DNA of 32,000 nucleotides from Xanthomonas campestris pv. campestris str. ATCC 33913 (GCF_000007145.1 NC_003902.1:2876497-2908496); one strand, 5' to 3'. Positions 10,182 through 26,962 are shown, numbered from the stretch's first letter. A program made the numbers and translations. The notes: a model not told the origin generated them from the sequence alone.

Positions 10182-10647
10182 CGCGTCTGACGTAGTTGGG
10201 GTGGACCACTGCCGGAAATACGGCAGGCGTGCGCGATGCGTCTTGCCATCGAACGGCGGGCGGTCGACAGCGTCGTGCATGCTCCATGGCGTTAGCGACT
10301 CCCCGTGAAGACTGCCCGCGTGCGGCATCGGTTGTGCCCGTCGCGGGCGAGACGATAGCGCGCCCGCCAGCATCGCCACAACTTCCGTCCGCCTGCCGGT
10401 CGTTGTGCTGCGACAAAACGCTAAACCGTTCACTGCCGCGCGGCCTGGTGGGCGCAGCGCTGCGCCATGGCCGCCGTCTGATGTCCGATGACCGCGCGTC
10501 TCATCCACTGAGACGCGTGCTTGGCAGCATCGCCGCCGATGACACGCACCACAACGGCTACTCGCCGCACCACATTGATTGAACGGCGGCACTGCGCGCC
10601 TGGCATCGCGCCAAGCAACGCGTTACCACCGAGACAGGAGGCCGGCG

Positions 10648-12260: not shown

Positions 12261-12439
12261 ACTGCCTGCGACGCGATGCCTGCGTTGCGAGGAGGCGCAT
12301 CATAACGAGCGTGCGGGATTTCGGCAAGCGTTCGCGCGCATGTCGTGTTGGGGCTGAGCCGCAGCCCGGTTTCTTGCGCCGGTTCACGCCAAGCGGGGGC
12401 GCCGATGGCCTAGCCTGCGCGCGTCCTTTGGAGATTCGC

Positions 12440-12976
12440 ATGCGCCTGCCTCGCCTGTTGTTGTCATTCGCCGCCCTGCTGCCGCTGGCTGCCCTTGCGC
12501 AGCAACCGGTGCGCGCCGTGCCGGCGTTGGATATCTCGCGTTATGCCGGGCAGTGGCACGAGATCGCCCATCTACCGGTGTCGTTCCAGAAGAAATGCCG
12601 CAGCGATATCACCGCCAGCTACACCTTGCGCGACGACGGCCTGATCGGGGTGCGCAATGGCTGCCGCGTTGCCGATGGCAGCCTGACCCAGGCCGACGGC
12701 GTGGCACGCCCGGTGGCCGGGCACCCCGGGCAGTTGCAGGTGCGCTTCGCGCCGGAATGGCTGTCGTGGATCCCGCTGGTCTGGGCGGACTACTGGGTGA
12801 TTGCGCTCGATCCCGACTATCAGTGGGCGGTGGTCGGCGAGCCGGATCGCAAGTACCTGTGGATCCTGTCGCGCTCGCCAGAGATGCCGCGCGCGCAGTT
12901 CGAGCAGTTGAAGGCCACCGCCACGCAGATGGGCTACGACCTGTCGCCCCTGATTGTGGCGGCGCCACTGCGCTGA
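12440..12976 (+). CDS. blc: Bacterial lipocalin (Blc-like, 178 aa)
   Basis: Signal peptide MRLPRLLLSFAALLPLAALA, then the lipocalin signature YAGQWHEIAHLP...YWVIALDPDYQWAVVGEPDRKYLWILSR. GGAGA lies upstream of the ATG. Confidence 0.85.
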   Translation: MRLPRLLLSFAALLPLAALAQQPVRAVPALDISRYAGQWHEIAHLPVSFQKKCRSDITASYTLRDDGLIGVRNGCRVADGSLTQADGVARPVAGHPGQLQVRFAPEWLSWIPLVWADYWVIALDPDYQWAVVGEPDRKYLWILSRSPEMPRAQFEQLKATATQMGYDLSPLIVAAPLR

Positions 12977-13052: not shown

Positions 13053-13532
13053 ATGCACCGTGCCTTTCGCCTCCTGATCGTGACGCTGTCGTGCGGCCTG
13101 CTGTTGAGCGCCTGCGGTGGCGGCGCGGTTCGCCGTGTCTCCGAGCCGACTGCCCGTATCCAGCAGCTGACCGTGCGCCCGGACGGTGGCTGGTCGGTGG
13201 AGTTGCGCCTGCAGAACTACAGCAGCATTCCGATGCGCTTCGAGCGCGTGGCGCTGGAGATCGGCATGGGCGATGGGGTTGCCGGCAAACTCGACCAGGC
13301 GGTGGGCATTTCGATCGGCCCGGAAACCGCCGATGTCGTGACGGTGAGCCTGCAGCCCGCCTCGCTCGGCCGCATCACCATTGCCGATGTGCTGGCCGGT
13401 GGCCGCTCGCTGCCGTACACGCTCAAAGGCACGGTGTGGGCCACCCCGCAGGACAAGAAACAACGCGAGTTCACGGTTGATTCGCGCAACACGCTCAGCC
13501 CGGCCCCGGGCCTCAACGGCGTGCTGCGCTGA
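13053..13532 (+). CDS. Lipoprotein, LEA_2 / NDR1-like fold (159 aa)
   Basis: MHRAFRLLIVTLSCGLLLSACGG contains an LSAC lipobox. The body resembles late-embryogenesis-abundant type 2 domain proteins (by eye). Confidence 0.65.
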   Translation: MHRAFRLLIVTLSCGLLLSACGGGAVRRVSEPTARIQQLTVRPDGGWSVELRLQNYSSIPMRFERVALEIGMGDGVAGKLDQAVGISIGPETADVVTVSLQPASLGRITIADVLAGGRSLPYTLKGTVWATPQDKKQREFTVDSRNTLSPAPGLNGVLR

Positions 13533-13569
13533 CGCGCACGCCTCCACGCACACGCTTCAAGGATCCCGC

Positions 13570-15363
<1,794 letters not shown>

Positions 15364-16869: not shown

Positions 16870-17047
16870 ACCGCGCTCGCGCTTGCCCGCATGCGACTGC
16901 GACAGTTCGTCGCAGGCATGCGGCGCAGCCACGCCACGCGTGCATCACGGCTGCTGCAGCCATCACTTCCCGCTGACACCTGAACCGGTTTGCTTGCCGG
17001 GCCTTCGCATGGGGAGGACAATATGGCTTCAGCACATTGACACGATG

Positions 17048-18964
17048 ATGATCGACTCCACCCGCTATCCGCGCCTGTCGCGCATCCAGACTCCCGACGA
17101 TCTGCGTACCTTCGAGGAGGCCGACCTCACCGCGGTCGCCGACGAACTGCGTGCCTACCTGATCGAATCGGTGGGCAAGAGCGGCGGCCATTTCGCCGCG
17201 GGTCTGGGGGTGATCGAACTCACCGTCGCCCTGCACTACCTCTACCAGACGCCGGTCGACCAACTGGTGTGGGACGTGGGCCATCAGACCTACCCGCACA
17301 AGATCCTGACCGGGCGCCGCGACCAGATCCACACGGTCAAGCAAAAGGACGGCGTGGCGCCGTTCCCCAAGCGCGAGGAGAGCGTGTACGACACCTTCGG
17401 TGTTGGGCATTCATCGACCTCGATCTCCGCCGCGCTGGGCATGGCGATCGCTGCGCAGCGCAATGGCGACGACCGCAAGGTGGTGGCGGTGATCGGCGAT
17501 GGCGCAATGACCGCCGGCATGGTCTACGAGGCGCTCAACCACGCCGGCGGCATGGACCCGGAACCCAACCTGCTGGTGATCCTCAACGACAACCGCATGT
17601 CGATCTCCGAGGCAGTGGGCGGGCTGACCAAGATGCTCGGCCGTGCCAGCGGCAGCCGCACGCTCAACGCGATCCGCGAGGGCGGCAAGAAGATCCTCGG
17701 CGACAAGAAGAACAACCCCACCGCGCGCTTCGTGCGCCGCTGGGAAGAACACTGGAAAGGCATGTTCGTGCCGTCCACGTTGTTCGAGGAAATGGGCTTC
17801 CACTACACAGGCCCGATCGATGGCCACGACCTGCCCAGCCTGGTCGGCGCGCTGAAGACCTTGAAGACCTTGAAGGGTCCGCAGCTGCTGCACGTGATCA
17901 CCACCAAGGGCAAGGGCTACGAGCTCGCCGAAGGCGACCAGATTGGTTACCACGCGGTCGGCCCGTTCGACCCGAGCAAGGGCCTGGTGGCCAAGGCCGG
18001 CGCCAAGAAGCCGACCTACACCGATGTCTTCAGCGACTGGGTGTGCGACATGGCGGCGGCCGATCCCAAAATGCTGGTGATCACCCCGGCGATGCGCGAA
18101 GGCTCCGGCCTGGTGCGCTTCAGCAAGGAATATCCGCAGCGCTATTTCGACGTGGCGATTGCCGAGCAACACGCGGTCACCCTGGCCGCCGGCATGGCAA
18201 CGCAAGGCGCCAAGCCGGTGGTGGCGATTTATTCGACGTTCCTGCAGCGCGGTTACGACCAGCTGGTGCACGACGTGGCGGTGCAGAAACTGGATGTGCT
18301 GTTCGCGATCGATCGCGGCGGCGTGGTCGGCCCCGATGGCGCCACCCACGCCGGCAACCTGGACCTGAGCTTCCTGCGCTGCGTACCGCACATGGTGGTG
18401 ATGGCGCCGGCAGATGAGGCCGAGTGCCGCCAGATGCTCACCACCGGCCTGCGCTATGAGGGCCCGGCCGCGGTGCGCTATCCGCGCGGTACCGGCCCCG
18501 GCACCGCACTGGATGCCGCCCTGACCACCTTGCCGATCGGCAAGGCGCAGCTGCGTCACAGCGGCGCACGCATCGCGCTGCTCGGCTTCGGCGCCACGGT
18601 GGATGCCGCTGAAGCGGTCGGCCGCGAGTTGGGCCTGACCGTGGTGAACATGCGTTTCGTCAAACCACTCGACAAGGCGATGCTGCTGGAGCTGGCCAAG
18701 TGCCACGAAGCCTTTGTCAGCATCGAAGACAACGTGGTGGCCGGCGGCGCAGGCTCGGGCGTCTCCGAGCTGCTCAATGCCGAAGGCGTGCTGATGCCGA
18801 TGCTGCACCTGGGCCTGCCGGACAGCTTCCAGCACCACGCCAGCCGCGAAGACCTGCTCGCCGAGGCCGGTATTGACCAGGCCGGCATCCGCGCCGCCGT
18901 GCTCAAGCGCTGGCCGCAGCTGATGGCGAAGGGCCAGCAGGCATTGAATGCAGCGGCAGGCTGA
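17048..18964 (+). CDS. dxs: 1-deoxy-D-xylulose-5-phosphate synthase (638 aa)
   Basis: [21 protein letters not shown]-terminus. ThDP motif [18 protein letters not shown]...NDN. Transketolase-like pyrimidine-binding and C-terminal domains. Confidence 0.95.
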
Positions 18965-19239: not shown

Positions 19240-20496
19240 CTAAAGCGTGGGCACTTTCCCGTTGCACGCAAAGGCTTCCACCAACTGCAGCAGCGGTGCC
19301 TGCGCATTGATCTCCTGCAATTCCACCTGCAGCCGGTTGACGCCGGGCAACGCGGCGTCGCCGTTCAACGCTTGCTGCAATAACGCAGGCAAGCCGCCCA
19401 GATCGCGCAACCACCACGCGGCACCAGCTGCCTGCAGCCGTGCCGCGTGGTCGAACTGGTCGTAGTCCAGCGGGTAGACGATCGATGGCAGCCCCGCCGC
19501 CAGGCACGCGTACAGAATGCCGGCGCCACCGTGGTGCACCACCAACACGTAGCGCTGCAGATGCTGTGCGTAATCGACATACGGCAGGCAGTGATAATTG
19601 CCCTGCGCTGGCTGCGGCGGCAGCGCGGTATCGCCCGCACTGAAATGGAACACCACGTCCGGGAACTGCGGCGCCAAGGCGCGTAGGTCCGCGTCCATGC
19701 GTTGCTTGACCCATTGCAGATGCGTGCCCAACGTCACCAGGACGTGGCGGCGCCCGTCGATGAACCTGGGCGGCGGCACGTCATTGGGCGGCGTGCACAA
19801 CTGCGGCCCGACGAAGCGCACCGCGGCAGGCCAGCGCCGCGCAAATTCAAACGACGGCAGCCCCAGCGCGAGCACACAGTGCGGCGAATACACCGCCTCG
19901 CTGCCATCCGCGCGGTACAGCGCCGGCAATCCGGCCGCACACATCTGCTGCCGATAACAGCGATGCAGGCTGCGCTTGAAGCCACGCGTCAGACGGCGCG
20001 CGATGGCATGCCAGATCCGTTGCGACCTACCGCTCGCGGGCAACAGGCCGCCGAAATACGCTGGCGGGCCATCGGCGGTTTCCAGCACGCAAGGAGACGG
20101 CAGGCTGGTCCACCAGGCAATGCCCATGGCCTGCGCCGCCAACCCGGCGCTGGGCACGGTGAAGTCGGCAATCACCAGCTCCGGCCGGCGCACGCAGTAG
20201 TGCTGTTGCAGGCCCTCACCCAGCCGCACCATCAGGCCCAATGCTGCGTGCAATTGGCGGCGCAGCCGCAACGGATTGTGGCCGACCGCATGCCGCGGAT
20301 TGGCGATCTGCGCCAGCAGCTGGTCGGCCTGCGCATCCAGCACGCTGATGCCGTGCAGGCCGCACGCTGCGATGCGCGCCATTGCCGCAGGCGTACTGAT
20401 CACGCGCACGTCGTGCTGTGCCGCCAGTTGGCGCGCGATCGCCAGAATCGGATGCAGGTGCCCGCTGTACGGCGGTGCGATCAGATCGATGCGCAT
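19240..20496 (-). CDS. GT1-family (GT-B, MGT/UDP-glycosyltransferase-like) glycosyltransferase (418 aa)
   Basis: N-terminal MRIDLIAPPYSGHLHPILAIARQL. C-terminal nucleotide-sugar motif VVHHGGAGILYACLAAGLPSIVYPLDYDQFDHA. ATG 20496 overlaps the upstream stop by 16 nt. Confidence 0.85.
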   Translation of the reverse strand: MRIDLIAPPYSGHLHPILAIARQLAAQHDVRVISTPAAMARIAACGLHGISVLDAQADQLLAQIANPRHAVGHNPLRLRRQLHAALGLMVRLGEGLQQHYCVRRPELVIADFTVPSAGLAAQAMGIAWWTSLPSPCVLETADGPPAYFGGLLPASGRSQRIWHAIARRLTRGFKRSLHRCYRQQMCAAGLPALYRADGSEAVYSPHCVLALGLPSFEFARRWPAAVRFVGPQLCTPPNDVPPPRFIDGRRHVLVTLGTHLQWVKQRMDADLRALAPQFPDVVFHFSAGDTALPPQPAQGNYHCLPYVDYAQHLQRYVLVVHHGGAGILYACLAAGLPSIVYPLDYDQFDHAARLQAAGAAWWLRDLGGLPALLQQALNGDAALPGVNRLQVELQEINAQAPLLQLVEAFACNGKVPTL

Positions 20497-21095
20497 GTCT
20501 GCCCTCGCCGCCCGGCCTGCTCCACTTCGCTCGCGAACGCCTGGCAGGCCGCGCGCACCGTGCTGTCGCGCAGATAGTCCATGTGCCCGCACGCGGGCTG
20601 CATGTCCACCGGCCCGCGATACAGCGCGCGCGAGATCCAGTCGCGGCGCCCCTGCACGATGCATTGCCGCTCGAACGGTGCCAACGCATTCGCAACTGGC
20701 CCGTAGGCGAACACCGCAACGCGCGCACGCAGTGGCGCCGGCAGGTGCAACGCCGCCAATAGCTGCAGGCCGCAGCTGCCGACCAGCAGCAGCGTGAGCG
20801 GCACTGGCTCCAGCTGCGTGATGACTGCTGCGCGCTCAGGCGGCGCCACCGGGCCACTGCGCGCGGCCAGATACTGCCGCGCGTTGGCCGCACTTGCCCG
20901 CCACAGCGGCACGCGCCGATGCGCAGCGCCATCCGGACGATAGGGATAGTTGCAGTCCAACAGGCGCCTGCCGTGCCCGCGCAATTGCTGCAGAAACAGG
21001 CGCTGCTCCTCGCTCAGCGCGCAGCGCTGCGGATCGCTTTGCCCGGTGAGGAAGGCGATCTGCAACAGCGGCTCACTGCGCACGAAACCGCCCAT
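20481..21095 (-). CDS. Hypothetical protein, possibly a minimal alpha/beta-hydrolase or thioesterase-like fold (204 aa)
   Basis: It fills the only space between GT21 and GT1 in a tightly overlapped operon. Candidate nucleophile elbow LLLVGSCGL, then RRDW and a C-terminal ACGHMDY, in nucleophile-acid-His order. No family recognised. Confidence 0.55.
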   Translation of the reverse strand: MGGFVRSEPLLQIAFLTGQSDPQRCALSEEQRLFLQQLRGHGRRLLDCNYPYRPDGAAHRRVPLWRASAANARQYLAARSGPVAPPERAAVITQLEPVPLTLLLVGSCGLQLLAALHLPAPLRARVAVFAYGPVANALAPFERQCIVQGRRDWISRALYRGPVDMQPACGHMDYLRDSTVRAACQAFASEVEQAGRRGQTCASI

Positions 21096-22221
21096 CCGGC
21101 AGCACGCGGTAGCGACGGGTACGCCAACGGATCGTGCGCACTAGCGCCGCATGCAGCAGGTGCAATGGCTGCAGGCACTCGGCCGCCAGCGACAGCAGTG
21201 GCCGGTGCCGGCTCTCGCCGGTGGTGCGCCACTGCAGCAGGCACAGCAGCGCGGTACGCACGGTGAGCAGGCCAGCCACCGCTGCAAACGACAGCGCTCC
21301 TGGTTGCAGGCAGGCCGAGAGCAGCGTGGCGATCAACAACCATGGTGGCAACCCATGCAGCGCGCCGATCGCCAGCTTCACGGCCGGGCGCTGGCGGCGC
21401 AGCAGCAACAGCGCGAACAACATCCAGCGATGCATCTGCCGCACGTAGCTGGCCAGATCGGGCAACGCAGTGCGCATCGCCACCGGCGCGGTGGACTGCC
21501 AGAGCCGCCCCCCTTGCGCACGCACATGCGCGGCGAAGGCCAGATCGTCGGTCAGCTGGTCCAACAATGGCGCAAATCCGCCCCAGGCCTGCAGTTGCTG
21601 CGTGCGCCCGGCATAGCACATGCCATTGATCGTGAGAGGCGCCGCCCATGGCAGCCACCCCAGATACGTGAGCGCGGCATTGTTGTTGACGAACTGCGCC
21701 AGCAGCCGCCCTGCCAACGTGCTCCCGTCCTGGTAGTACGGCAGCGCGGTCACCAGATCGGCGTGCGCCAGGTCGTGCAGCAAGAGCGCCAGCGCAGCGC
21801 TGCTTAACTGCGCATCGTCGTCCAGGATCAAGGTGATGGATGCCTGTACCTGCGGCAGTGCGTGGTGCAGCTTCCACGCCTTGGGATTGATGCCGAGCGG
21901 TGCGGGCGGCACTGTGATGCGTGCGATCCGCACGCCAGGATGCTGTGCGACCAGGGTTGCTGCAGCAGCGTTGCCCGCTGCGTCGTCGGCATCCAGCAAC
22001 CAGACGAACTGGGCGTGCGGCAGCGCCTGCAGGTTGGCGGCGAGCACCTGCTGCAGATGCGCATCACCGCCAAGGATGGGTTGCAGGATCGCTACCTCCG
22101 CCTGCGTTCCCGCTGGCACCTGCACTGCGGCGCGGCGCTGCACAATCCACAACGCGCCCAGCGCACGCAGCATCAGCATGGCGAGATAGGCCAACGCCAG
22201 CAGCAGCGTAATTACACCCAC
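21073..22221 (-). CDS. GT2-superfamily, GT21-type (ceramide-glucosyltransferase/HpnI-like) integral-membrane glycosyltransferase (382 aa, GTG start)
   Basis: N-terminal TM helix ITLLLALAYLAMLML. D-rich motifs (WLLDADD, LILDDDA, TDDL). INPK segment. QMHRW = (Q/R)xxRW. C-terminal TM helices. The upstream 358 codons of ORF 21073-23295 are the out-of-frame shadow of the SDR gene. Confidence 0.8.
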   Translation of the reverse strand: MGVITLLLALAYLAMLMLRALGALWIVQRRAAVQVPAGTQAEVAILQPILGGDAHLQQVLAANLQALPHAQFVWLLDADDAAGNAAAATLVAQHPGVRIARITVPPAPLGINPKAWKLHHALPQVQASITLILDDDAQLSSAALALLLHDLAHADLVTALPYYQDGSTLAGRLLAQFVNNNAALTYLGWLPWAAPLTINGMCYAGRTQQLQAWGGFAPLLDQLTDDLAFAAHVRAQGGRLWQSTAPVAMRTALPDLASYVRQMHRWMLFALLLLRRQRPAVKLAIGALHGLPPWLLIATLLSACLQPGALSFAAVAGLLTVRTALLCLLQWRTTGESRHRPLLSLAAECLQPLHLLHAALVRTIRWRTRRYRVLPDGRFRAQ

Positions 22222-23171
22222 TGCGCTGCCTGCCAACGCACGAAGGCGTCGATGCCTTCGTCCAGGCCAACGCTGGGCGTGCCCAGGTCGGCCAGCGTGC
22301 GGCGCGGGTCGAAGGTCTTGGAGTACGCAAACACACCCACGCCGAAGCGCGTGATCGGCGGCTCGCCACGCAAGCGCAGCAACCGGCAGGCGCCCTCCAC
22401 CACACTGGCCATCCGCAACGCCGTGCCGATGCGCACCTGCCGCTGCGGCAACGGCAACTGCAGGCGCGCCAGAACATCCAGCAGCAGCTGCTGCAGATCG
22501 ACCGGCTGCGCATTGGTGAGGTTGTAGGACGGTTGCAGTTGCGGCGCGACGGCGGCGCGGTACAGGTAGTCGCAGAGCGCATCGATGTAGATCAGATCGC
22601 CGATCACCGGCTGGCTCTGGCCAACGAAGCGCGGCAACGCTCCTTTGCGTGCGGCAGCAATCACACGCGGAAACAGCACGGTGTCGCCGGGGCCAAATAC
22701 CGCGCGCGGACGCAGGATGCTCTTCTCGCCCGCGTACCCATCCAGCAGCGTCTCGCCGAGGTATTTGGTCTGCGCGTAGGTGTTGACGAAGCGCGGCCCG
22801 ATCGGGCTGTCTTCGCTGAGCCCGTACTGATGTTCTTCGCGGTAGAACACCGAGCTCGATGACACGTACAGCAGACGCGGATTGCCGTTGCGAGTGCAGA
22901 AGTCGATGACATTCGCGGTGGCCTGCACATTGTGCAGCTCGAATTGCGCGCGGGTGCCCCAGGGAGACGCCAGTGCCGCCGCATGAATCACCACATCCGG
23001 CTGCCAGTCGAGCGTAAACGGCTGGCTCAGGTCGATGCGATGGTAGTTGGGCAACGCGCAGGCGCGGCGGCCGATGCCGTGGATGTCCAACCCTGGCTGG
23101 CCCTGAAAGCGCCGCAGAAAGGCGCCGCCCACAAAGCCCGATGCGCCGGTGACAAGAATACGCAGGCTCAT
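22212..23171 (-). CDS. NAD(P)-dependent epimerase/dehydratase (extended SDR, 3-beta-HSD-like, 319 aa)
   Basis: MSLRILVTGASGFVGG Rossmann motif at the N-terminus and a catalytic YAQTK (YxxxK). ATG 23171 overlaps the upstream TGA as ATGA. Confidence 0.9.
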   Translation of the reverse strand: MSLRILVTGASGFVGGAFLRRFQGQPGLDIHGIGRRACALPNYHRIDLSQPFTLDWQPDVVIHAAALASPWGTRAQFELHNVQATANVIDFCTRNGNPRLLYVSSSSVFYREEHQYGLSEDSPIGPRFVNTYAQTKYLGETLLDGYAGEKSILRPRAVFGPGDTVLFPRVIAAARKGALPRFVGQSQPVIGDLIYIDALCDYLYRAAVAPQLQPSYNLTNAQPVDLQQLLLDVLARLQLPLPQRQVRIGTALRMASVVEGACRLLRLRGEPPITRFGVGVFAYSKTFDPRRTLADLGTPSVGLDEGIDAFVRWQAAQWV

Positions 23172-24016
23172 CGCCACTCCGGTTGATAACGGTCCAGACT
23201 GGGCTGGCAATGCGATGGCAGGATCGCCAGCTCCGGATGCGCCTGCACCAAGCCATGCAGCACGCGCACGGTGCGCTGGAACGCGGACCAGTCATGCATC
23301 AGCAGGCGCGTGGGCCACGCCGGCCACGCCAAGCTTGCAAAGGTGGCCGACGACCACACCGCGTCGGCGCACAGCAACACTTCGCGATCGTGCTGGTCGC
23401 GCAACCACAGCCCCATCTGCCCCGGCACATGCCCGGGCAAGGCCACCGCCATCACGCTGCCATCGGCGAACAGGTCGTAGCCCACGCCCAGGCCCTTCCA
23501 CGCAGCACCGAGTGCGCGCTGCGGCGCCTGCTCGGCAAACTGCACGCGCTGCGCGAAGTCGTCTGGCAGCAGTTGCGGCAGCAGTGCACGCCGCAGGCCG
23601 CCCAGGCGCGAGGCGGCGCGCAGCTGTGCATAGTCGGCGTGCAGGCAGACGAAGCGCGCAGTGGGCAGATCGCGCAGACCGCCGACATGGTCGGCGTGGA
23701 AGTGCGAGATCAGGCACCAGCCAATATCCTCGAGCGCCAGATCACGGCGCGCCAGCTGCGCCTGCAGACGCTCCTGGGCGGGCAAGGTCACCGGCGTGGC
23801 CCAGCGATACAGCCGCTCCGGCAACGGATCGGTGGCACGGAAGAAATGCTCTGCATAGCCGGTGTCATAGAGCAGCGCCCCGCGTTGCGGATGCCGGATC
23901 AGCACACTCAACGCGGGGAATTCCACTGAATGCCAATGCCCGTCCGCGCGCACCATGCGTTCGCAGTGGTGGCAATGCCCGATGCGCAACAACTCGACCG
24001 AGACCCGCGTCGCCAT
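23168..24016 (-). CDS. gumP: MBL-fold metallo-hydrolase (282 aa); labelled gumP in Xanthomonas genome annotations, as I recall
   Basis: Zinc motif ISHFHADHVGG (HxHxDH) and a downstream ALPGH. ATG 24016 overlaps the KAS III TGA as ATGA. Confidence 0.8.
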   Translation of the reverse strand: MATRVSVELLRIGHCHHCERMVRADGHWHSVEFPALSVLIRHPQRGALLYDTGYAEHFFRATDPLPERLYRWATPVTLPAQERLQAQLARRDLALEDIGWCLISHFHADHVGGLRDLPTARFVCLHADYAQLRAASRLGGLRRALLPQLLPDDFAQRVQFAEQAPQRALGAAWKGLGVGYDLFADGSVMAVALPGHVPGQMGLWLRDQHDREVLLCADAVWSSATFASLAWPAWPTRLLMHDWSAFQRTVRVLHGLVQAHPELAILPSHCQPSLDRYQPEWR

Positions 24017-25047
24017 CAGTACCTCAACACCATGCCGCCGATCGACAGGCCGGCACCGGTGCCGAGCATCGCGAATAGTTCGCCGCGCTGCAGCTGCTGC
24101 GTGACCCTGGCCTGATGCAGCGCGTGTGGCAGCGATGCCGCCACCTGGTTGCCATGCGCGTGCAGGATGCGCACCACCTGCTCCGGGCGCAGGCCGAGCG
24201 CCTGCACCACATGATCCAGGCCGCCACCGGAGGCTTGATGCGGGATCAGGCAGCGCAGTGCGGTGGTCTCGGTACCGGCGTCGCGCAGCAGCTGGTCCCA
24301 GAACGCCGGCAGGTGGCGCGCCGCAAAGCGATACGCACCGCGCCCATCCATGGTGAAGACCCGCGTGGCTTCGGGCGTGCTGTCTTCGCCACGCGGATAG
24401 CGGCTGCCGCCACCGCGGATGCGGCACAGCTCGGCACCGCTGCCGTAGCTGGCCAGGCGGCTGGACAGCAGCGCCGAGTCTTCGTCAGGCGCGCTGCGCC
24501 CGACCACCACGGCGGCAGCGCCATCGCCGAACAAGCCGGCGGTCGATGGCACCGCCGCATCCAGCCCGCCCGACGCCACTTCGCTGGAGACGATGAGCAC
24601 GCGGCGATAGCGGCCCAGGGCCAGCGCGTTTGTGGCCATGTCCAATGCGACCAGAAAACTCAGGCAGGTGGCGTTGACATCGAATGCCGGGATGCCAGAG
24701 TCACCCAGCCCCAGGGCACGCTGGATCAGCACTGCCTGGCACGGGATCGGCTGCTCCATCACGCTGCAGGCGGAGATCAGGCAGTCGATCTCGCCGCTAT
24801 CGATACCGGCGCTGACCAATGCCGCTTGCGCGGCGGCGGCGCCCATGGACGAGGCCGTTTCGCCCTCGCCTGCATAGTGGCGCGTGGCGACGCCCAGCCG
24901 CGCGAACGTGGTTCCCGGCGGCAACTGCCAGCGTGCGTCCAGTTCTTGCGACGTCACTTCCGTGGCGGGAACGTGGCACCCGGTGCCCAGGATGCGCAGC
25001 GGCAATGCGTTCAACAGATCCGCCTCGTTGGTGAAGGCGCGCAGCAT
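24016..25047 (-). CDS. gumO: FabH-like 3-oxoacyl-ACP synthase III family condensing enzyme (343 aa); labelled gumO in Xanthomonas genome annotations, as I recall
   Basis: Cys-His-Asn triad contexts: DVNATCLSFLVALD, LIPHQASGG, HAHGNQVAASLP. Start at MLRAFTNEADLL, 17 residues before RILGTG. The upstream ORF extension is Arg/Ala-rich. Confidence 0.8.
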   Translation of the reverse strand: MLRAFTNEADLLNALPLRILGTGCHVPATEVTSQELDARWQLPPGTTFARLGVATRHYAGEGETASSMGAAAAQAALVSAGIDSGEIDCLISACSVMEQPIPCQAVLIQRALGLGDSGIPAFDVNATCLSFLVALDMATNALALGRYRRVLIVSSEVASGGLDAAVPSTAGLFGDGAAAVVVGRSAPDEDSALLSSRLASYGSGAELCRIRGGGSRYPRGEDSTPEATRVFTMDGRGAYRFAARHLPAFWDQLLRDAGTETTALRCLIPHQASGGGLDHVVQALGLRPEQVVRILHAHGNQVAASLPHALHQARVTQQLQRGELFAMLGTGAGLSIGGMVLRY

Positions 25048-25382
25048 ACCGTGGCCGGCCAGGCAGACCCAGCTGCCTGCGCAATGTTGGCGCAGTCGTG
25101 GGGCTTGCACGGCGAGCACAGCGCCATCCGTAGCGATGGGATGGGGATGGCGGCACTTGGTGCGGGTCGAGACTGGCATCGCCCACCTGGCCGCGCGGGC
25201 GCATGCGTGGCGAGCCAGGGCACATGTTGGGCGCGCTGCGGTTTTCGCAATAACGTCCGACACCGGGGTGGCACTGAAACTCGCGCGCCGCCCTCTCCTT
25301 TCGTCACCGCGGGCAGCATGCATTCGATACACCGGTCCAAGCGCACATCAGGTCGAGCCAGTCACACAACCTCGCACCGTAC

Positions 25383-26408
25383 TCAGGGCGCCTCCACCTC
25401 ATAGCCCATCGCACGCAAGCGCGCGGCATAGCCGTCGGAGGCGGTCAGCCGGCTGATCGGCAACACCGCAAAGGTGCTGCGGTTGCGCTGCAGCGCCTGC
25501 GTGGCGATCTCCAGCCAATGCTGGCGCAGCCGGCCTTCCAGATCGTTGATGCCGCGCTTCTTGGCCACGCCAGTACTGGCCATCGCTCCCATGCACGGGG
25601 CTTGCGGGTCGGCACGCGGCAACTGCCGCAACGTCTCGATGTCGCCTACCGACCAGGCATTGGCGCGTTCCACCATCGTCGGCAAATCGCGTTCGACAGT
25701 CACCAGAATGCTGCGAAAGCACGCAGTGTCGTCCATACCGCCCGCACGGAAATCCTTGATCGCCTGCCGCGGGTTGTCGATCTTGTATTCGAGCGTGGTC
25801 GAGGTCGGCTTGATACCGGCGCGCTTGGCAGCGCGCTCCACCACCGACCAGATCACCGGCGAGCGGGCCAGGCCAGAGCGTTTGAGCGCAGCCTGATACA
25901 ACTCGCCGGCAGCCAGCATCGGCCGCTTGCGCTCCACGCCACGGTCGCGCCCCATGTAACGCGCCTTGGCAACGGTCCAGCGCGCATACAACTCAGGCGG
26001 CAGCACATCGCGCAGCTCACGCCCGTCTTCGTTCTTCATCGCCTTCATCGCCGCGGGCATCAGGGCCAATTTGCCGAACATGCCAACGTCGGCATCCACC
26101 TGCACCATCGGCGCCATCAGCACCTGCTGCGATTGGCCGATGATGGTTTCGACCTCGGTCGCTTGCCACTCCAGGTCCTTCGGCAACGGTGACAACGTGC
26201 CCAGGATCCACAGCACGTGGTCGCCCTTGCTGACCTTCCACAGGCCGGGGCCGGGTTGCTGCCCGCGCACCACCATGGCTTCCAGATCGACCACCGTTGG
26301 CGGCGCTGCCGGCGCCTGTACGGCCACCTCGACGGCACACGCCAGCATCGGTGCCAACAACGACACCAACGCGATTCCTGCCCGCCACACCGCCCCCCTG
26401 CGCTGCAT
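25383..26408 (-). CDS. gumN: TraB/GumN-family periplasmic protein (341 aa)
   Basis: Signal peptide MQRRGAVWRAGIALVSLLAPMLACA. N-terminal LWKVSKGDHVLWILGT and C-terminal ...GYAARLRAMGYEVE resemble the TraB/PrgY/GumN family. Sits downstream of gumM. Confidence 0.7.
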   Translation of the reverse strand: MQRRGAVWRAGIALVSLLAPMLACAVEVAVQAPAAPPTVVDLEAMVVRGQQPGPGLWKVSKGDHVLWILGTLSPLPKDLEWQATEVETIIGQSQQVLMAPMVQVDADVGMFGKLALMPAAMKAMKNEDGRELRDVLPPELYARWTVAKARYMGRDRGVERKRPMLAAGELYQAALKRSGLARSPVIWSVVERAAKRAGIKPTSTTLEYKIDNPRQAIKDFRAGGMDDTACFRSILVTVERDLPTMVERANAWSVGDIETLRQLPRADPQAPCMGAMASTGVAKKRGINDLEGRLRQHWLEIATQALQRNRSTFAVLPISRLTASDGYAARLRAMGYEVEAP

Positions 26409-26464
26409 CACGTACCGCCTCCCGGTTGGAACGCGGACACTACGCGAACGCGGGCCCGCACGCG

Positions 26465-26962
26465 TTAGGGAAGCGTTGGCGGCTCCGGCGCGGCGCCTTC
26501 GGCAACCAACGCGGCCAGCTGTGCCGCCAGCGGCGAGCCGTCTTCGAGCAGCGCGAAACCTTCCCAGACAAACCCTGGCGAAACCGTGCAGCCCACCAGG
26601 GTGAAGTCCCCCAGCGAGCGCGCCGCCTGCCAGCAGCCGGCCGGCACCACGTGCATGGCGTCGCCGCGCTCTGCGGCGTCCAGCACTTCGCGCCGCAACT
26701 GCCCGCTCGCTTCGTCGAAGATCAGCAACTCCAGCGGCGCACCTTGCTGCCAGTGCCAGCACTCCTCGGCATCCACCCGATGCCAGCGACTGGCTTCGCC
26801 TGCGCACAACAGGAAGCGGATGGCGGTCAGCGCCGGACGCGGCGGCGCACCGCTGTCATCCAGCACCTGGCGCGTCGACGCGTACACGCGCCGGTAGTGG
26901 CCGCCCTCCGGATGGGGGGCAAGGCCCAATGTTCGAATCAGCGCGGCGGCGGTTGGATGCAT
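26465..26962 (-). CDS. DUF985 cupin-fold protein (165 aa)
   Basis: LGLAPHPEGGHYRRVY...HVVPAGCWQAARSLGDFTLVGCTVSPGFVWEGF matches the Cupin_5/DUF985 pattern. Confidence 0.8.
   Translation of the reverse strand: MHPTAAALIRTLGLAPHPEGGHYRRVYASTRQVLDDSGAPPRPALTAIRFLLCAGEASRWHRVDAEECWHWQQGAPLELLIFDEASGQLRREVLDAAERGDAMHVVPAGCWQAARSLGDFTLVGCTVSPGFVWEGFALLEDGSPLAAQLAALVAEGAAPEPPTLP

Follow-up and report, generated by a model that had tools for sequence, protein, structure and literature searches.

A conserved two-module gene cassette beside the gum cluster of Xanthomonas campestris as a candidate glycosylated-lipid pathway

The ketosynthases MxnB and CorB of myxopyronin and corallopyronin biosynthesis are stand-alone enzymes of the KAS III fold, which belong to trans-AT PKS clusters and join two carrier-bound beta-ketoacyl chains to each other. 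Thioesterases of the metallo-beta-lactamase (MBL) fold also exist, for instance PqsE, which works with PqsD. Extended SDRs act in some cases on nucleotide sugars and in others on lipids, and bacterial GT21 enzymes reportedly glycosylate diacylglycerol, as in the work on Pgt of Agrobacterium and Mesorhizobium. Pyrones can be made by a single KAS III-like enzyme that has no dedicated ACP or ligase (PMC4578411, PMC4901931), and in CorB a proline at position His+2 has been tied to non-decarboxylative chemistry (PMC5506619). The gene names gumO and gumP are historical, and no role of their region in xanthan has been reported (PMC2585010).

We analysed a window of 32,000 nucleotides from Xanthomonas campestris pv. 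campestris str. ATCC 33913 (NC_003902.1:2876497-2908496), in which gumO and gumP are the first two of six genes on the minus strand (25047-19240; Table 1). Direct reading of the sequence confirmed the gene order given in an initial annotation, as well as the overlap that it had claimed for all five junctions. Its description of the first junction as ATGA did not hold: gumO and gumP are joined by TGATG (24018-24014) with an overlap of 1 nt. The other four junctions are as described, with ATGA between gumP and the SDR gene (23171-23168), an overlap of 10 nt that places the GTG start of the GT21 gene inside the SDR gene, 23 nt between the GT21 gene and the gene for the 204-aa protein, and 16 nt at the last junction, where the ATG of the GT1 gene lies inside the hydrolase gene. 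Based on this gene geometry, the six genes form a putative operon. Pfam and NCBIfam profile searches agreed with the earlier family call for every named domain. We propose, with somewhat better than even confidence, that the six genes constitute a self-contained two-module cassette for a glycosylated lipid, which has spread by horizontal transfer and lies beside gum by position only.

Table 1 Features of the six-gene locus and its upstream spacer. Positions are counted from the first nucleotide of the window.
Feature	Length	Coordinates	Strand	Start codon	Stop codon
KAS III-like gene gumO	343 aa	24016..25047	minus	ATG 25047	TGA 24018-24016
MBL gene gumP	282 aa	23168..24016	minus	ATG 24016	TGA 23170-23168
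Extended SDR gene 'chd2'	319 aa	22212..23171	minus	ATG 23171	TAA 22214-22212
GT21 membrane glycosyltransferase gene	382 aa	21073..22221	minus	GTG 22221	TGA 21075-21073
Alpha/beta hydrolase gene	204 aa	20481..21095	minus	ATG 21095	TGA 20483-20481
GT1 (GT-B) glycosyltransferase gene, last of six	418 aa	19240..20496	minus	ATG 20496	TAG 19242-19240
Spacer between gumN and the ketosynthase gene	335 nt	25048..25382	minus		

GumO is a stand-alone KAS III-type ketosynthase (Pfam ACP_syn_III and ACP_syn_III_C) that scored below the curated cut-off of every FabH model (347 versus 402 bits for PRK07204, 208 versus 292 bits for TIGR00747). Its best solved relatives are MxnB (4v2p, 244 bits) and CorB (4yuc, 238 bits), with approximately 45% identity over the full length, compared to at most 171 bits for true FabH structures, 93 bits for PqsD and 54 bits for the OleA of X. 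campestris. Judged by these alignments, GumO is closest to MxnB/CorB rather than to a housekeeping FabH. Cys128, His270 and Asn300 were conserved in 67 orthologues, and the start codon was conserved among Xanthomonas species. In each of the 67 orthologues the His+2 residue is alanine (HQAS), which FabH has as well, whereas it is proline in CorB and MxnB; the missing proline counts against the proposal of a chain-fusing reaction (PMC5506619).

GumP is an MBL-fold hydrolase (Pfam Lactamase_B), in which H105-x-H107-x-D109-H110, H196, D218 and H269 as well as the N-terminal Cys15 and His17 were conserved in 68 orthologues. Its top family and structure matches were AHL lactonases of the AttM/AiiA type, GcL and 4-pyridoxolactonase, all far below curated cut-offs, and according to these matches it resembles lactonases more closely than thioesterases. 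With a lactonase-like GumP and an MxnB/CorB-like GumO, thioester hydrolysis is only one of the ways in which 'release' might proceed.

These similarities also raise the possibility of a pathway to a small molecule of the lactone or pyrone type. Like the photopyrone and pseudopyronine synthases, which use fatty-acid intermediates, the ketosynthase would join two acyl chains into an alpha-pyrone-type lactone, the MBL enzyme would open the ring, and the diketone or keto acid would be reduced and glycosylated to yield a diffusible signal or surfactant instead of a membrane lipid. The identity of GumO to MxnB/CorB, which clearly exceeds its similarity to FabH, the lactonases as sole nearest relatives of GumP and the constant pairing of both genes would be in line with such a pathway, and the fact that a lone KAS III-like enzyme can build pyrones fits a window without ACP or ligase genes. 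However, no PKS or carrier protein is encoded nearby, His-Gln-Pro of CorB/MxnB is replaced by the FabH-like His-Gln-Ala, and MBL-fold thioesterases are known as well, with PqsE acting beside PqsD, a moderate match of GumO. We consider this pathway improbable.

The SDR (Pfam Epimerase, 3Beta_HSD and NAD_binding_4) showed its top NCBIfam match with the 2-alkyl-3-oxoalkanoate reductase OleD (137 bits; cut-off 580) and its top PDB match with NSDHL. Conserved positions comprise G9-x-x-G12-x-x-G15, S104, Y132-x-x-x-K136 and R35/R36 after beta-2. According to established SDR cofactor rules, the conserved Arg35/Arg36 and the lack of an acidic residue after beta-2 suggest that the enzyme is probably NADPH-dependent. 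OleD and NSDHL, its closest characterised relatives, act on lipid beta-keto/beta-hydroxy acids and not on nucleotide sugars. Weaker matches were obtained with RmlD (44 bits), GalE (35 bits) and fucose synthase, and the substrate could be a nucleotide sugar instead.

In the GT21 protein (Pfam Glyco_transf_21, 145 bits), D77, D80, D134-D136, D225/D226 and H264-R265-W266 of the (Q/R)xxRW motif were conserved in 79 orthologues, and hydrophobic segments were detected at residues 1-28 and 283-330. Its best PDB match was ceramide glucosyltransferase (E 1.7e-7), and it reached 86 bits against HpnI (cut-off 310). The 204-aa protein encoded next had been regarded as an orphan, a view that we could not uphold. 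No Pfam or NCBIfam model matched it, and no Pfam match appeared even at E = 5; its 578 homologues (296 clusters at 50% identity) share an invariant Ser107-Asp152-His171 triad with S107 in A/V-G-S-C-G. In the AlphaFold2 model (pLDDT 92.8) this serine is located between strand 100-105 and helix 109-116, and a Foldseek search with the model retrieved lipase A of B. subtilis/pumilus, XC6422, cutinases and dienelactone hydrolases (TM 0.42-0.57). Triad, model and structural matches identify the protein as a lid-less minimal alpha/beta hydrolase of a small Pfam-less family. Two metagenomic proteins, P0256 and P0359, are fusions of GT21 and hydrolase; given the overlap of the two genes, these fusions might be artefacts of a frameshift. 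The GT1 enzyme (Pfam Glyco_tran_28_C, EryCIII-like_C and UDPGT) falls within the MGT/activator-dependent glycosyltransferase subfamilies, under their cut-offs, with rhamnosyltransferase 9ke1 and CalG3/CalG1 as best PDB matches. G12-H13-L14-H15-P16, H321-H322-G324-G326 and D344-x-D346-Q347 were conserved in 78 orthologues.

A scan of 185,579 species genomes recovered 80 loci. Where all six genes were present, they were collinear, on one strand and tightly packed; a minority of the loci contained the back module only or was ended by a contig edge. The catalytic residues of all six proteins were kept in at least 97% of 67-81 orthologues, and overlapping junctions recurred between the genes for SDR and GT21 (67 of 74 loci), GT21 and hydrolase (64 of 75) and hydrolase and GT1 (74 of 79). 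Co-conservation of the six genes, on which the initial annotation had staked its proposal, proved to be strong, with collinearity across phyla. The cassette is real, strongly conserved and horizontally mobile, and members of at least eight bacterial phyla carry it. When all ORFs of 20 diverse loci were clustered, no further conserved neighbour emerged, which is why we regard the cassette as self-contained, and no sphingolipid or hopanoid genes were present in its neighbourhood. Neither a characterised homologue nor a paper on function was found for the cassette proteins, in agreement with the earlier statement that no product or phenotype had been established.

The cassette consists of two modules, a front module (KAS III and MBL) and a back module (SDR-GT21-hydrolase-GT1). 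The back module occurs by itself, with no KAS III or MBL genes in the 20-kb loci that were read, in Stenotrophomonas, where it is flanked by ppiD and hupB-lon-clpXP, and in an actinobacterial MAG, where a P450 and a protein of the MMPL lipid-exporter family follow it. Dyella-like genomes contain a front module of KAS-SDR2-MBL-ligase joined to unrelated downstream genes, and the KAS-MBL pair was always found together in the loci examined. The window SDR is 59-62% identical to the SDR of cassettes that lack the KAS or contain a ligase, and 31-37% identical to the front-module SDR2, for which OleD was likewise the top NCBIfam match (158-210 bits). Judged by these identities, it is the orthologue of the back-module SDR and the first gene of that module. 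This weakens the proposed order of building, release and reduction, as the SDR belongs to a four-gene module that exists without KAS III and MBL.

In 15 of 20 phylogenetically spread loci, a TIGR02304 F390-synthetase-related adenylating gene is located between the MBL and SDR genes. This ligase is of the PaaK/F390 and not the OleC type; it is present in most copies outside the Xanthomonadales and absent from those within, which is most simply explained by loss. The earlier statement that the operon has no adenylating enzyme thus applies to the Xanthomonadales version only, and the claimed lack of an exporter is correct for the window but not for the actinobacterial copy with its downstream MMPL transporter.

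As the back module functions without KAS and MBL in some genomes, the front-module product may be a decoration and not the aglycone. The back module could then be a general membrane-glycolipid synthase acting, for example, on diacylglycerol or another common membrane lipid. In this case, the SDR would provide a nucleotide sugar in modified form, the hydrolase would acylate or deacylate the sugar, and the role of KAS III, MBL and, elsewhere, the F390-like ligase would be limited to an unusual acyl decoration. We regard this as possible, albeit rather unlikely. It would agree with the separate occurrence of the back module, the combination of the front module with other back ends, the reported glycosylation of diacylglycerol by bacterial GT21 enzymes, the weaker but real SDR matches to RmlD, GalE and fucose synthase, and the position of the ligase, where present, at the module boundary, as expected for activating a front-module acid for transfer. 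However, the best SDR matches are lipid-acting, Arg35/Arg36 suggests an NADPH reductase over an NAD+ epimerase, and Xanthomonas keeps KAS and MBL under purifying selection after ligase loss, which is hard to explain if attachment of the acid needs adenylation.

GumJ, GumK, GumL, GumM and GumN domains were found upstream on the same strand, as expected from the annotated position beside the gum cluster, and dxs lies downstream in convergent orientation. The spacer between gumN and gumO contained no sigma-70-like or terminator-like consensus site. Its last ~12 nt, the KAS start context CCACGGTATG, are kept across Xanthomonas species; the remainder is unconserved and of variable length among the species compared. 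The six genes may be transcribed from their own promoter or by gum read-through. Their position immediately after gumN in the same orientation, the lack of a recognisable terminator in the spacer, the historical names (PMC2585010) and a cassette beside gumM in L028, a Lysobacteraceae genome outside Xanthomonas, could indicate accessory gum genes that modify xanthan (e.g. by lipid-anchoring or acylation), another envelope polysaccharide or LPS. We consider this very unlikely. Among the 80 loci, a gum-adjacent cassette was restricted to Xanthomonas and L028, and cassettes without gum were found in Luteimonas, Tahibacter, Stenotrophomonas, Acidobacteriota, Verrucomicrobiota, Gemmatimonadota, Betaproteobacteria and Enterobacterales; the lack of gum in most lineages therefore argues against a xanthan function. 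Conversely, X. oryzae, X. translucens and Xylella bear gum and lack the cassette according to published comparisons (PMC5554336, PMC4468381). Moreover, the xanthan repeat-unit pathway uses none of the enzyme families of the cassette, and no xanthan role has been described for it in the literature (PMC2585010). The independence from xanthan synthesis that had been claimed is therefore well founded.

Returning to the two-module glycosylated-lipid cassette, our best guess for the product is a glycosylated fatty-acyl-derived lipid. The gene content, order and coupling, the conserved catalytic residues, the modularity, the distribution across phyla and the independence from gum follow directly from the data, whereas the sugar donors, the acceptor, the reaction order and each of the chemical steps are inferred; since all family matches except those of GT21 and GT1 are far below curated cut-offs, the substrate assignments are analogies. 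The front module would make a beta-keto-acyl-derived lipid from primary fatty-acid intermediates, with the MxnB/CorB-like ketosynthase catalysing a decarboxylative or chain-fusing Claisen condensation and the di-metal hydrolase GumP freeing or opening the product via thioester or lactone hydrolysis. The OleD/3-beta-HSD-like SDR, probably using NADPH, would convert a keto group into the sugar-bearing hydroxyl. The membrane-anchored GT21, a relative of ceramide, diacylglycerol and hopanetetrol glycosyltransferases, would attach the first sugar on the cytoplasmic side of the inner membrane, and the soluble GT1 would add the second. Near GT21, the lid-less hydrolase might act on the lipid or glycolipid as an esterase, an acyltransferase or a thioesterase. 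Lipid chemistry is favoured by the membership of GT21 in a lipid-glycosylating family and the transmembrane segments of the window protein, by the lipase and cutinase matches of the hydrolase and its fusion to GT21 in two independent metagenomic proteins, by the lipid-acting relatives of the SDR and by the MxnB/CorB-like ketosynthase.

The cassette resembles OleABCD in its condensing enzyme of the KAS III fold, its OleD-like SDR, its alpha/beta hydrolase and, in versions outside the Xanthomonadales, its adenylate-forming enzyme. These four shared classes, the top OleD matches of both SDRs and the lactonase-like enzyme could point to an Ole-like head-to-head condensation towards a beta-hydroxy acid, beta-lactone or olefin, with the ketosynthase as OleA, the SDR as OleD, the small hydrolase as OleB and the F390-like ligase, where present, as OleC. 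This appears extremely unlikely, as GumO matches MxnB far better than OleA, the SDR stays far under the OleD cut-off, the ligase is of another type and absent from the window, Foldseek gave no match of the lid-less minimal hydrolase to the haloalkane-dehalogenase-like OleB, and olefin synthesis has no use for two glycosyltransferases. Each component belongs to a different subfamily than its Ole counterpart, under curated cut-offs, and the cassette has the MBL enzyme and two glycosyltransferases in addition.

The Cys-His-Asn triad and the RGGGSR-P insertion of GumO are also present in MxnB and CorB; unlike them, GumO has no PKS or carrier protein nearby (20 loci) and carries alanine for the His+2 proline. 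The enzyme classes of GumO and GumP are also those of PqsD and PqsE in the alkylquinolone pathway of Pseudomonas, and their action may be likened to it, in that an MBL-fold hydrolase frees a beta-keto acid after condensation. The homology of PqsD to GumO is detectable; GumP showed no specific similarity to PqsE in the family and structure searches, in which lactonases were nearest. In contrast to the Pqs system, the cassette has no anthranilate-related genes and includes downstream glycosylation instead of quinolone formation. Ceramide glucosyltransferase and the hopanoid enzyme HpnI show the same GT21-family motif set D...DxD...(Q/R)xxRW and N- and C-terminal membrane segments as the window GT21, which is only distantly related to them. 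RhlA and the sophorolipid esterase were absent from the top 50 Foldseek matches of the hydrolase. As an analogy of enzyme classes, the parts list may nevertheless be likened to that of glycolipid surfactant clusters (RhlA/RhlB/RhlC for rhamnolipids; a P450, two UGTs, an esterase and an exporter for sophorolipids), which share with the cassette an alpha/beta hydrolase, a GT1 and a GT2-clan enzyme, there acting on hydroxy-fatty-acid lipids; the actinobacterial copy of the cassette has a P450 and a lipid exporter in addition.

The cassette comprises six genes on the minus strand. The first two, encoding a KAS III-like ketosynthase (gumO) and an MBL hydrolase (gumP), are referred to here as the front module, and the remaining four, encoding an SDR (chd2), a GT21 glycosyltransferase, a 204-aa protein and a GT1 glycosyltransferase, as the back module. 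Homologues of the 204-aa protein were aligned, and the alignment served as query for a genome scan covering 185,579 species with one genome per species. This revealed 92 relatives; 80 loci were kept and compared with the six window proteins using tblastn. In every locus the genes present were collinear and on one strand. Most loci contained all six genes, the exceptions being back modules alone or copies cut off by a contig end. The overlaps at the three back-module junctions were kept in 67 of 74, 64 of 75 and 74 of 79 loci, respectively, and the catalytic residues of the six proteins in at least 97% of 67–81 orthologues. The initial annotation had staked its six-gene unit on co-conservation across genomes, and the unit is clearly co-conserved.

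Positions of features in the window and of the sister cassette in three further loci
Feature	Position	Strand	Remark
KAS III-like ketosynthase (gumO)	25047-24016	minus	limits read off sequence
MBL (gumP)	24016-23168	minus	limits read off sequence
SDR (chd2)	23171-22212	minus	limits read off sequence
GT21	22221-21073	minus	limits read off sequence
204-aa protein (hydrolase)	21095-20481	minus	limits read off sequence
GT1	20496-19240	minus	limits read off sequence
GumJ, GumK, GumL, GumM, GumN domains	~31469 to 25383	minus	domain search
Spacer gumN to KAS III gene	directly after gumN (25383)		335 nt
dxs	16883-18964	+	convergent with the cassette, downstream of GT1
Large multi-PAS hybrid histidine kinase/response regulator	7320-10592	minus	
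Blc-type lipocalin	12311-12976	+	
Long acyl-CoA dehydrogenase with Acyl-CoA_dh_C domain	13381-15363	+	
Sister cassette	L083/L084 9001-16430; L085 9001-15405		KAS III, OleD-like SDR, MBL, F390-related ligase, PRK06849 ATP-grasp-like, 371-aa protein

Within the window, Pfam and NCBIfam searches agreed with every domain family that had been assigned to the genes from sequence alone. All five junctions overlap, four of them exactly as first described; the KAS/MBL junction is a TGATG at 24018-24014 with a shared A and not an ATGA. The GC content of the cassette is the same as that of its flanks, and it therefore does not have the look of a recent insertion. A consensus scan for promoters and terminators in this region of 65–70% GC returned nothing useful, the interval between GT1 and dxs contained only weak inverted repeats, and an alignment of the gumN-gumO spacer across species revealed no conserved promoter block. 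The histidine kinase, the lipocalin, the acyl-CoA dehydrogenase and dxs are not kept beside the cassette in other genera. For the adjacent gumN (25383-26807, minus strand), the longest frame encodes 474 aa, of which only residues 189-472 are covered by the TraB/PrgY/gumN domain. The true start of gumN is thus probably well downstream of 26807, and the published ‘intervening ORF’ of the gumM-gumN region may be located within this stretch.

A xanthan-related role would fit the location of the cassette after gumM/gumN in Xanthomonas and in one other Lysobacteraceae genome, yet we consider it unlikely, as had been argued in the initial annotation. Elsewhere among the 80 loci gum is absent. The cassette is not co-inherited with gumB-gumM: 52 of the 80 loci contain neither gumM nor gumN, including those of Luteimonas, Tahibacter, Stenotrophomonas, Acidobacteriota and Enterobacterales. 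The carriers without gum further comprise Rhodanobacteraceae, Undibacterium, Rhodoferax, Rheinheimera, Leminorella, Cedecea and Buttiauxella as well as Luteolibacter, Brevifollis, Holophagales, Thermoanaerobaculia, Gemmatimonadota and metagenome-assembled genomes (MAGs) of Leptospirales and actinobacteria. No GumD/M/H/K/I, GumF/G/L or GumB/C/E/J activity is represented among the six Pfam/NCBIfam assignments. Conversely, X. oryzae, X. translucens and Xylella are described to contain gum without the cassette (PMC5554336, PMC4468381). In the literature, the names gumO, gumP and chd2 are used for genes that vary among strains and for which no role in xanthan synthesis is known (PMC2585010), and XAC2571 was handled as a FabH paralogue in an RNA-seq study (PMC6833247). 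Apart from that study, our literature search on gumO, gumP, chd2 and related enzyme combinations returned comparative-genomics remarks and no functional study; neither a product, nor a phenotype, nor a characterised homologous cluster was found.

Two individual loci deserve mention. In a MAG labelled Synechococcus sp. UW140 (L033, 4676-11835), a seven-gene cassette encodes proteins 49–70% identical to those of Xanthomonas, and this copy is as close to Xanthomonas as the Luteimonas copies are, which suggests that the contig was mis-binned or that the MAG acquired the cassette by recent transfer. A tblastn search of 72,556 plasmids with the hydrolase returned zero matches, so that nothing points to a plasmid as vehicle. 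The second locus belongs to Xanthomonas vasicola NCPPB 2417 (L016, 6040-11846) and contains the complete six-gene cassette adjoining gumM/gumN. X. vasicola infects monocots, namely maize, sorghum, sugarcane and banana. Its cassette contradicts the published absence of gumO/gumP from monocot-infecting xanthomonads, according to which the two genes occur in the dicot-infecting group 2 species and are missing from monocot pathogens (PMC5554336, PMC4468381).

The loci also differ in gene content. In 20 loci the gap between the MBL and SDR genes measures about 1.3 kb, and the extra gene it contains matches TIGR02304, the model of ‘F390 synthetase-related’ proteins, with 659 and 370 bits (cut-off, 252). 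The encoded adenylate-forming enzyme is a distant relative of PaaK-type ligases. Fifteen of 20 diverse loci carry this ligase gene; Xanthomonas, Luteimonas, Tahibacter and their relatives do not, for which loss is the simplest explanation. The statement that the system lacks an adenylating enzyme thus does not hold in the form in which it was made. Clustering of the ORFs from the 20 diverse loci revealed no other conserved neighbour beyond antisense shadows, and neither an ACP nor a transporter. Copies from Enterobacterales have a LysR regulator gene upstream, and their KAS and MBL genes are separated by a second SDR gene. In Stenotrophomonas, the locus consists of SDR-GT21-hydrolase-GT1 only, situated between ppiD and hupB-lon-clpXP; this genus was seen in the 20-kb loci, and no Stenotrophomonas protein occurs among the top 120 KAS homologues. 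An actinobacterial MAG (L068, 11499-15409) likewise contains the four back-module genes, directly followed by genes for a cytochrome P450 and an MMPL-family transporter, the latter being the only exporter adjoining any cassette copy seen. Dyella-like genomes combine KAS, a separate front-module SDR (SDR2), MBL and ligase with quite different downstream genes, which encode a PRK06849 ATP-grasp-like protein, a 371-aa unknown protein and, in one locus, a Rieske oxygenase. This is the arrangement of the sister cassette in L083/L084 and L085, which ends with the 371-aa protein without family or, in L083/L084, with a Rieske oxygenase. Its front module corresponds to that of the cassette described here, its back end is wholly different, and it likewise appears to be uncharacterised. 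The window SDR is 59–62% identical to the back-module SDRs of Stenotrophomonas and Acidobacteriota and 31–37% identical to SDR2. Based on these identities and the module variants, the operon of Xanthomonas unites a front module reduced to KAS and MBL with a back module that is complete (SDR, GT21, hydrolase and GT1).

The 204-aa protein, 98% identical to an X. campestris protein, had been regarded as an orphan but is not one. A set of 5.8 billion proteins contains 578 homologues (E ≤ 1e-3), and a search of 1.84 billion representatives yielded 296 clusters at 50% identity; the protein hence represents a small but real family. It did not match any Pfam or NCBIfam model at E ≤ 0.01, and a Pfam search with 24 family members at E ≤ 5 returned only noise and no hydrolase family. 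In the alignment, Ser107 (within A/V-G-S-C-G), Asp152 and His171 are all invariant and would form a triad in the order Ser-Asp-His. The AlphaFold2 model (pLDDT 92.8, pTM 0.90) places Ser107 between a predicted strand (100-105) and helix (109-116), which corresponds to a nucleophile elbow. Foldseek matched this model to minimal alpha/beta hydrolases lacking a lid, namely Bacillus lipase A, X. campestris XC6422, cutinases and dienelactone hydrolases, with TM-scores of 0.42–0.57, 11–15% identity and a probability of ~1.0. Nucleophile elbow, triad order and the fold of the predicted model are those of an alpha/beta hydrolase. In two metagenomic representative proteins, P0256 (534 aa) and P0359 (557 aa), a Glyco_transf_21 domain is followed by this small alpha/beta hydrolase, which suggests that GT21 and hydrolase act together at the membrane. 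True fusions would indicate a physical complex; however, they are possibly frameshift artefacts because the two genes overlap. Within Xanthomonas, the hydrolase diverges much faster than the products of neighbouring genes: between X. campestris and other species (L001-L027) it is 61–66% identical, compared to 80–90% for KAS, MBL and SDR and 68–79% for the two glycosyltransferases.

The gumO ketosynthase carries a Cys-His-Asn triad (C128, H270, N300) that is kept in 67 orthologues. Its scores are below all curated FabH cut-offs (TIGR00747, 208 against 292; PRK09352, 228 against 249; PRK07204, 347 against 402), and its closest solved relatives with a KAS III fold are the chain-fusing pyrone synthases MxnB (244 bits) and CorB (238 bits) with ~45% identity, followed by FabH (≤171 bits), PqsD (93 bits) and X. 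campestris OleA (54 bits). We therefore rejected a second housekeeping FabH, also considering that the gene is locked to that of the MBL in every genome. A pyrone or lactone small molecule is a possible product given these relatives. However, CorB and MxnB contain H264-Q-P266, with the proline two positions after the histidine linked to a widened, non-decarboxylating active site (PMC5506619), whereas gumO has H270-Q-A272-S, kept in at least 97% of 67 orthologues. The likeness to MxnB and CorB combined with the alanine at this position means that the reaction could be of either type. The MBL has a complete di-metal site (H105, H107, D109, H110, H196, D218 and H269, kept in 68 orthologues), and its nearest relatives are, with low scores, AHL lactonases and 4-pyridoxolactonase. 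An operon for a quorum-quenching lactonase was rejected since the scores of the MBL fall far short of the family cut-offs (AttM, 65 against 390; AiiA, 36 against 375) and the enzyme is always paired with a ketosynthase. Outside the canonical metal site, the MBL contains an N-terminal G-x-C-x-H at residues 13-17 (GHCHHCE in the window), with G13, C15 and H17 kept in 68 orthologues; this may represent an additional metal or redox site.

The SDR is nearest to OleD (137 bits) and to NSDHL, a sterol 3-beta-HSD/decarboxylase, and not to sugar-nucleotide enzymes. Conserved Arg35/Arg36 after beta-2 argue, by established SDR cofactor rules, for a preference for NADPH and hence for a reductase. While the relation to OleD could point to an Ole-type pathway, its score compares with a cut-off of 580, no genes of the OleA, OleB or OleC type were found in the cassette, and each component is of the wrong subfamily. 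Membership of the Ole family is thus excluded, whereas a loose analogy is conceivable. GT21 is a clear member of its family (PF13506, 145 bits against a gathering score of 21.7) with conserved motif aspartates (D/DxD) and H264-R265-W266 of the (Q/R)xxRW motif, as well as hydrophobic segments at residues 1-28 and 283-330, in agreement with membrane anchoring. Ceramide glucosyltransferase is its only solved relative and HpnI its top NCBIfam match. GT1 exceeds the Pfam gathering scores of Glyco_tran_28_C (38.8 against 22) and EryCIII-like_C (32.7 against 31.7), contains the motifs GHxHP and HHGGxG...DQ with conserved H321-H322-G324-G326 and D346-Q347, and is nearest to a rhamnosyltransferase and calicheamicin glycosyltransferases.

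Judged from these sequence features, the cassette most likely directs the synthesis of a glycosylated lipid. Architecture and conservation are observed directly, and from them we infer each chemical step. The ketosynthase would build a beta-keto-acyl-derived lipid, which the MBL would release or ring-open and the SDR, as an NADPH-type enzyme, would reduce at the keto group. GT21 would attach the first sugar at the membrane, the hydrolase beside it may tailor the lipid or glycolipid, and GT1 would add a second sugar. A glycolipid pathway apart from xanthan, as first proposed, is thus plausible; the linear order of building, release and reduction did not stand as formulated. The existence of stand-alone back modules raises a serious alternative, in which the target of glycosylation by the back module would be a common membrane lipid and the front module would supply a decoration only. 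Returning to a dedicated glycolipid, it may be speculated, with considerable doubt, that the cassette produces a new bacterial class with a reduced aglycone derived from beta-keto-acyl or chain-fusion chemistry, to which two sugars are added at the membrane by the joint machinery of GT21, a hydrolase from a new alpha/beta-hydrolase family and GT1. The module would have been exchanged among at least eight phyla, and the lipid would help those Xanthomonas species that have kept it in their association with plants.

The genus Xanthomonas is of major importance among crop pathogens and the gum region is among its most studied loci, yet for 25 years the cassette genes have gone under gum names that reflect position only, and no function has been assigned to them. 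They form an independent two-module cassette that is common to distant phyla, includes an unmodelled hydrolase family and is accompanied outside Xanthomonadales by an adenylating enzyme. A new glycolipid, if confirmed, could bear on envelope biology, surfactant production or the host specificity of the retaining Xanthomonas species. Natural variants are available for comparison as back module alone and as six-, seven- and eight-gene forms. The cassette is a well-defined target, accessible to experiment, in a pathogen genus of importance. As a type of system it is unsurprising, and what is new here is its architecture and distribution, not proven new chemistry. In comparison to known systems, the cassette is a variant of the familiar gene clusters for fatty-acid-derived glycolipids, with an unmodelled hydrolase family and an unusual pairing of a KAS III with a lactonase-like enzyme.
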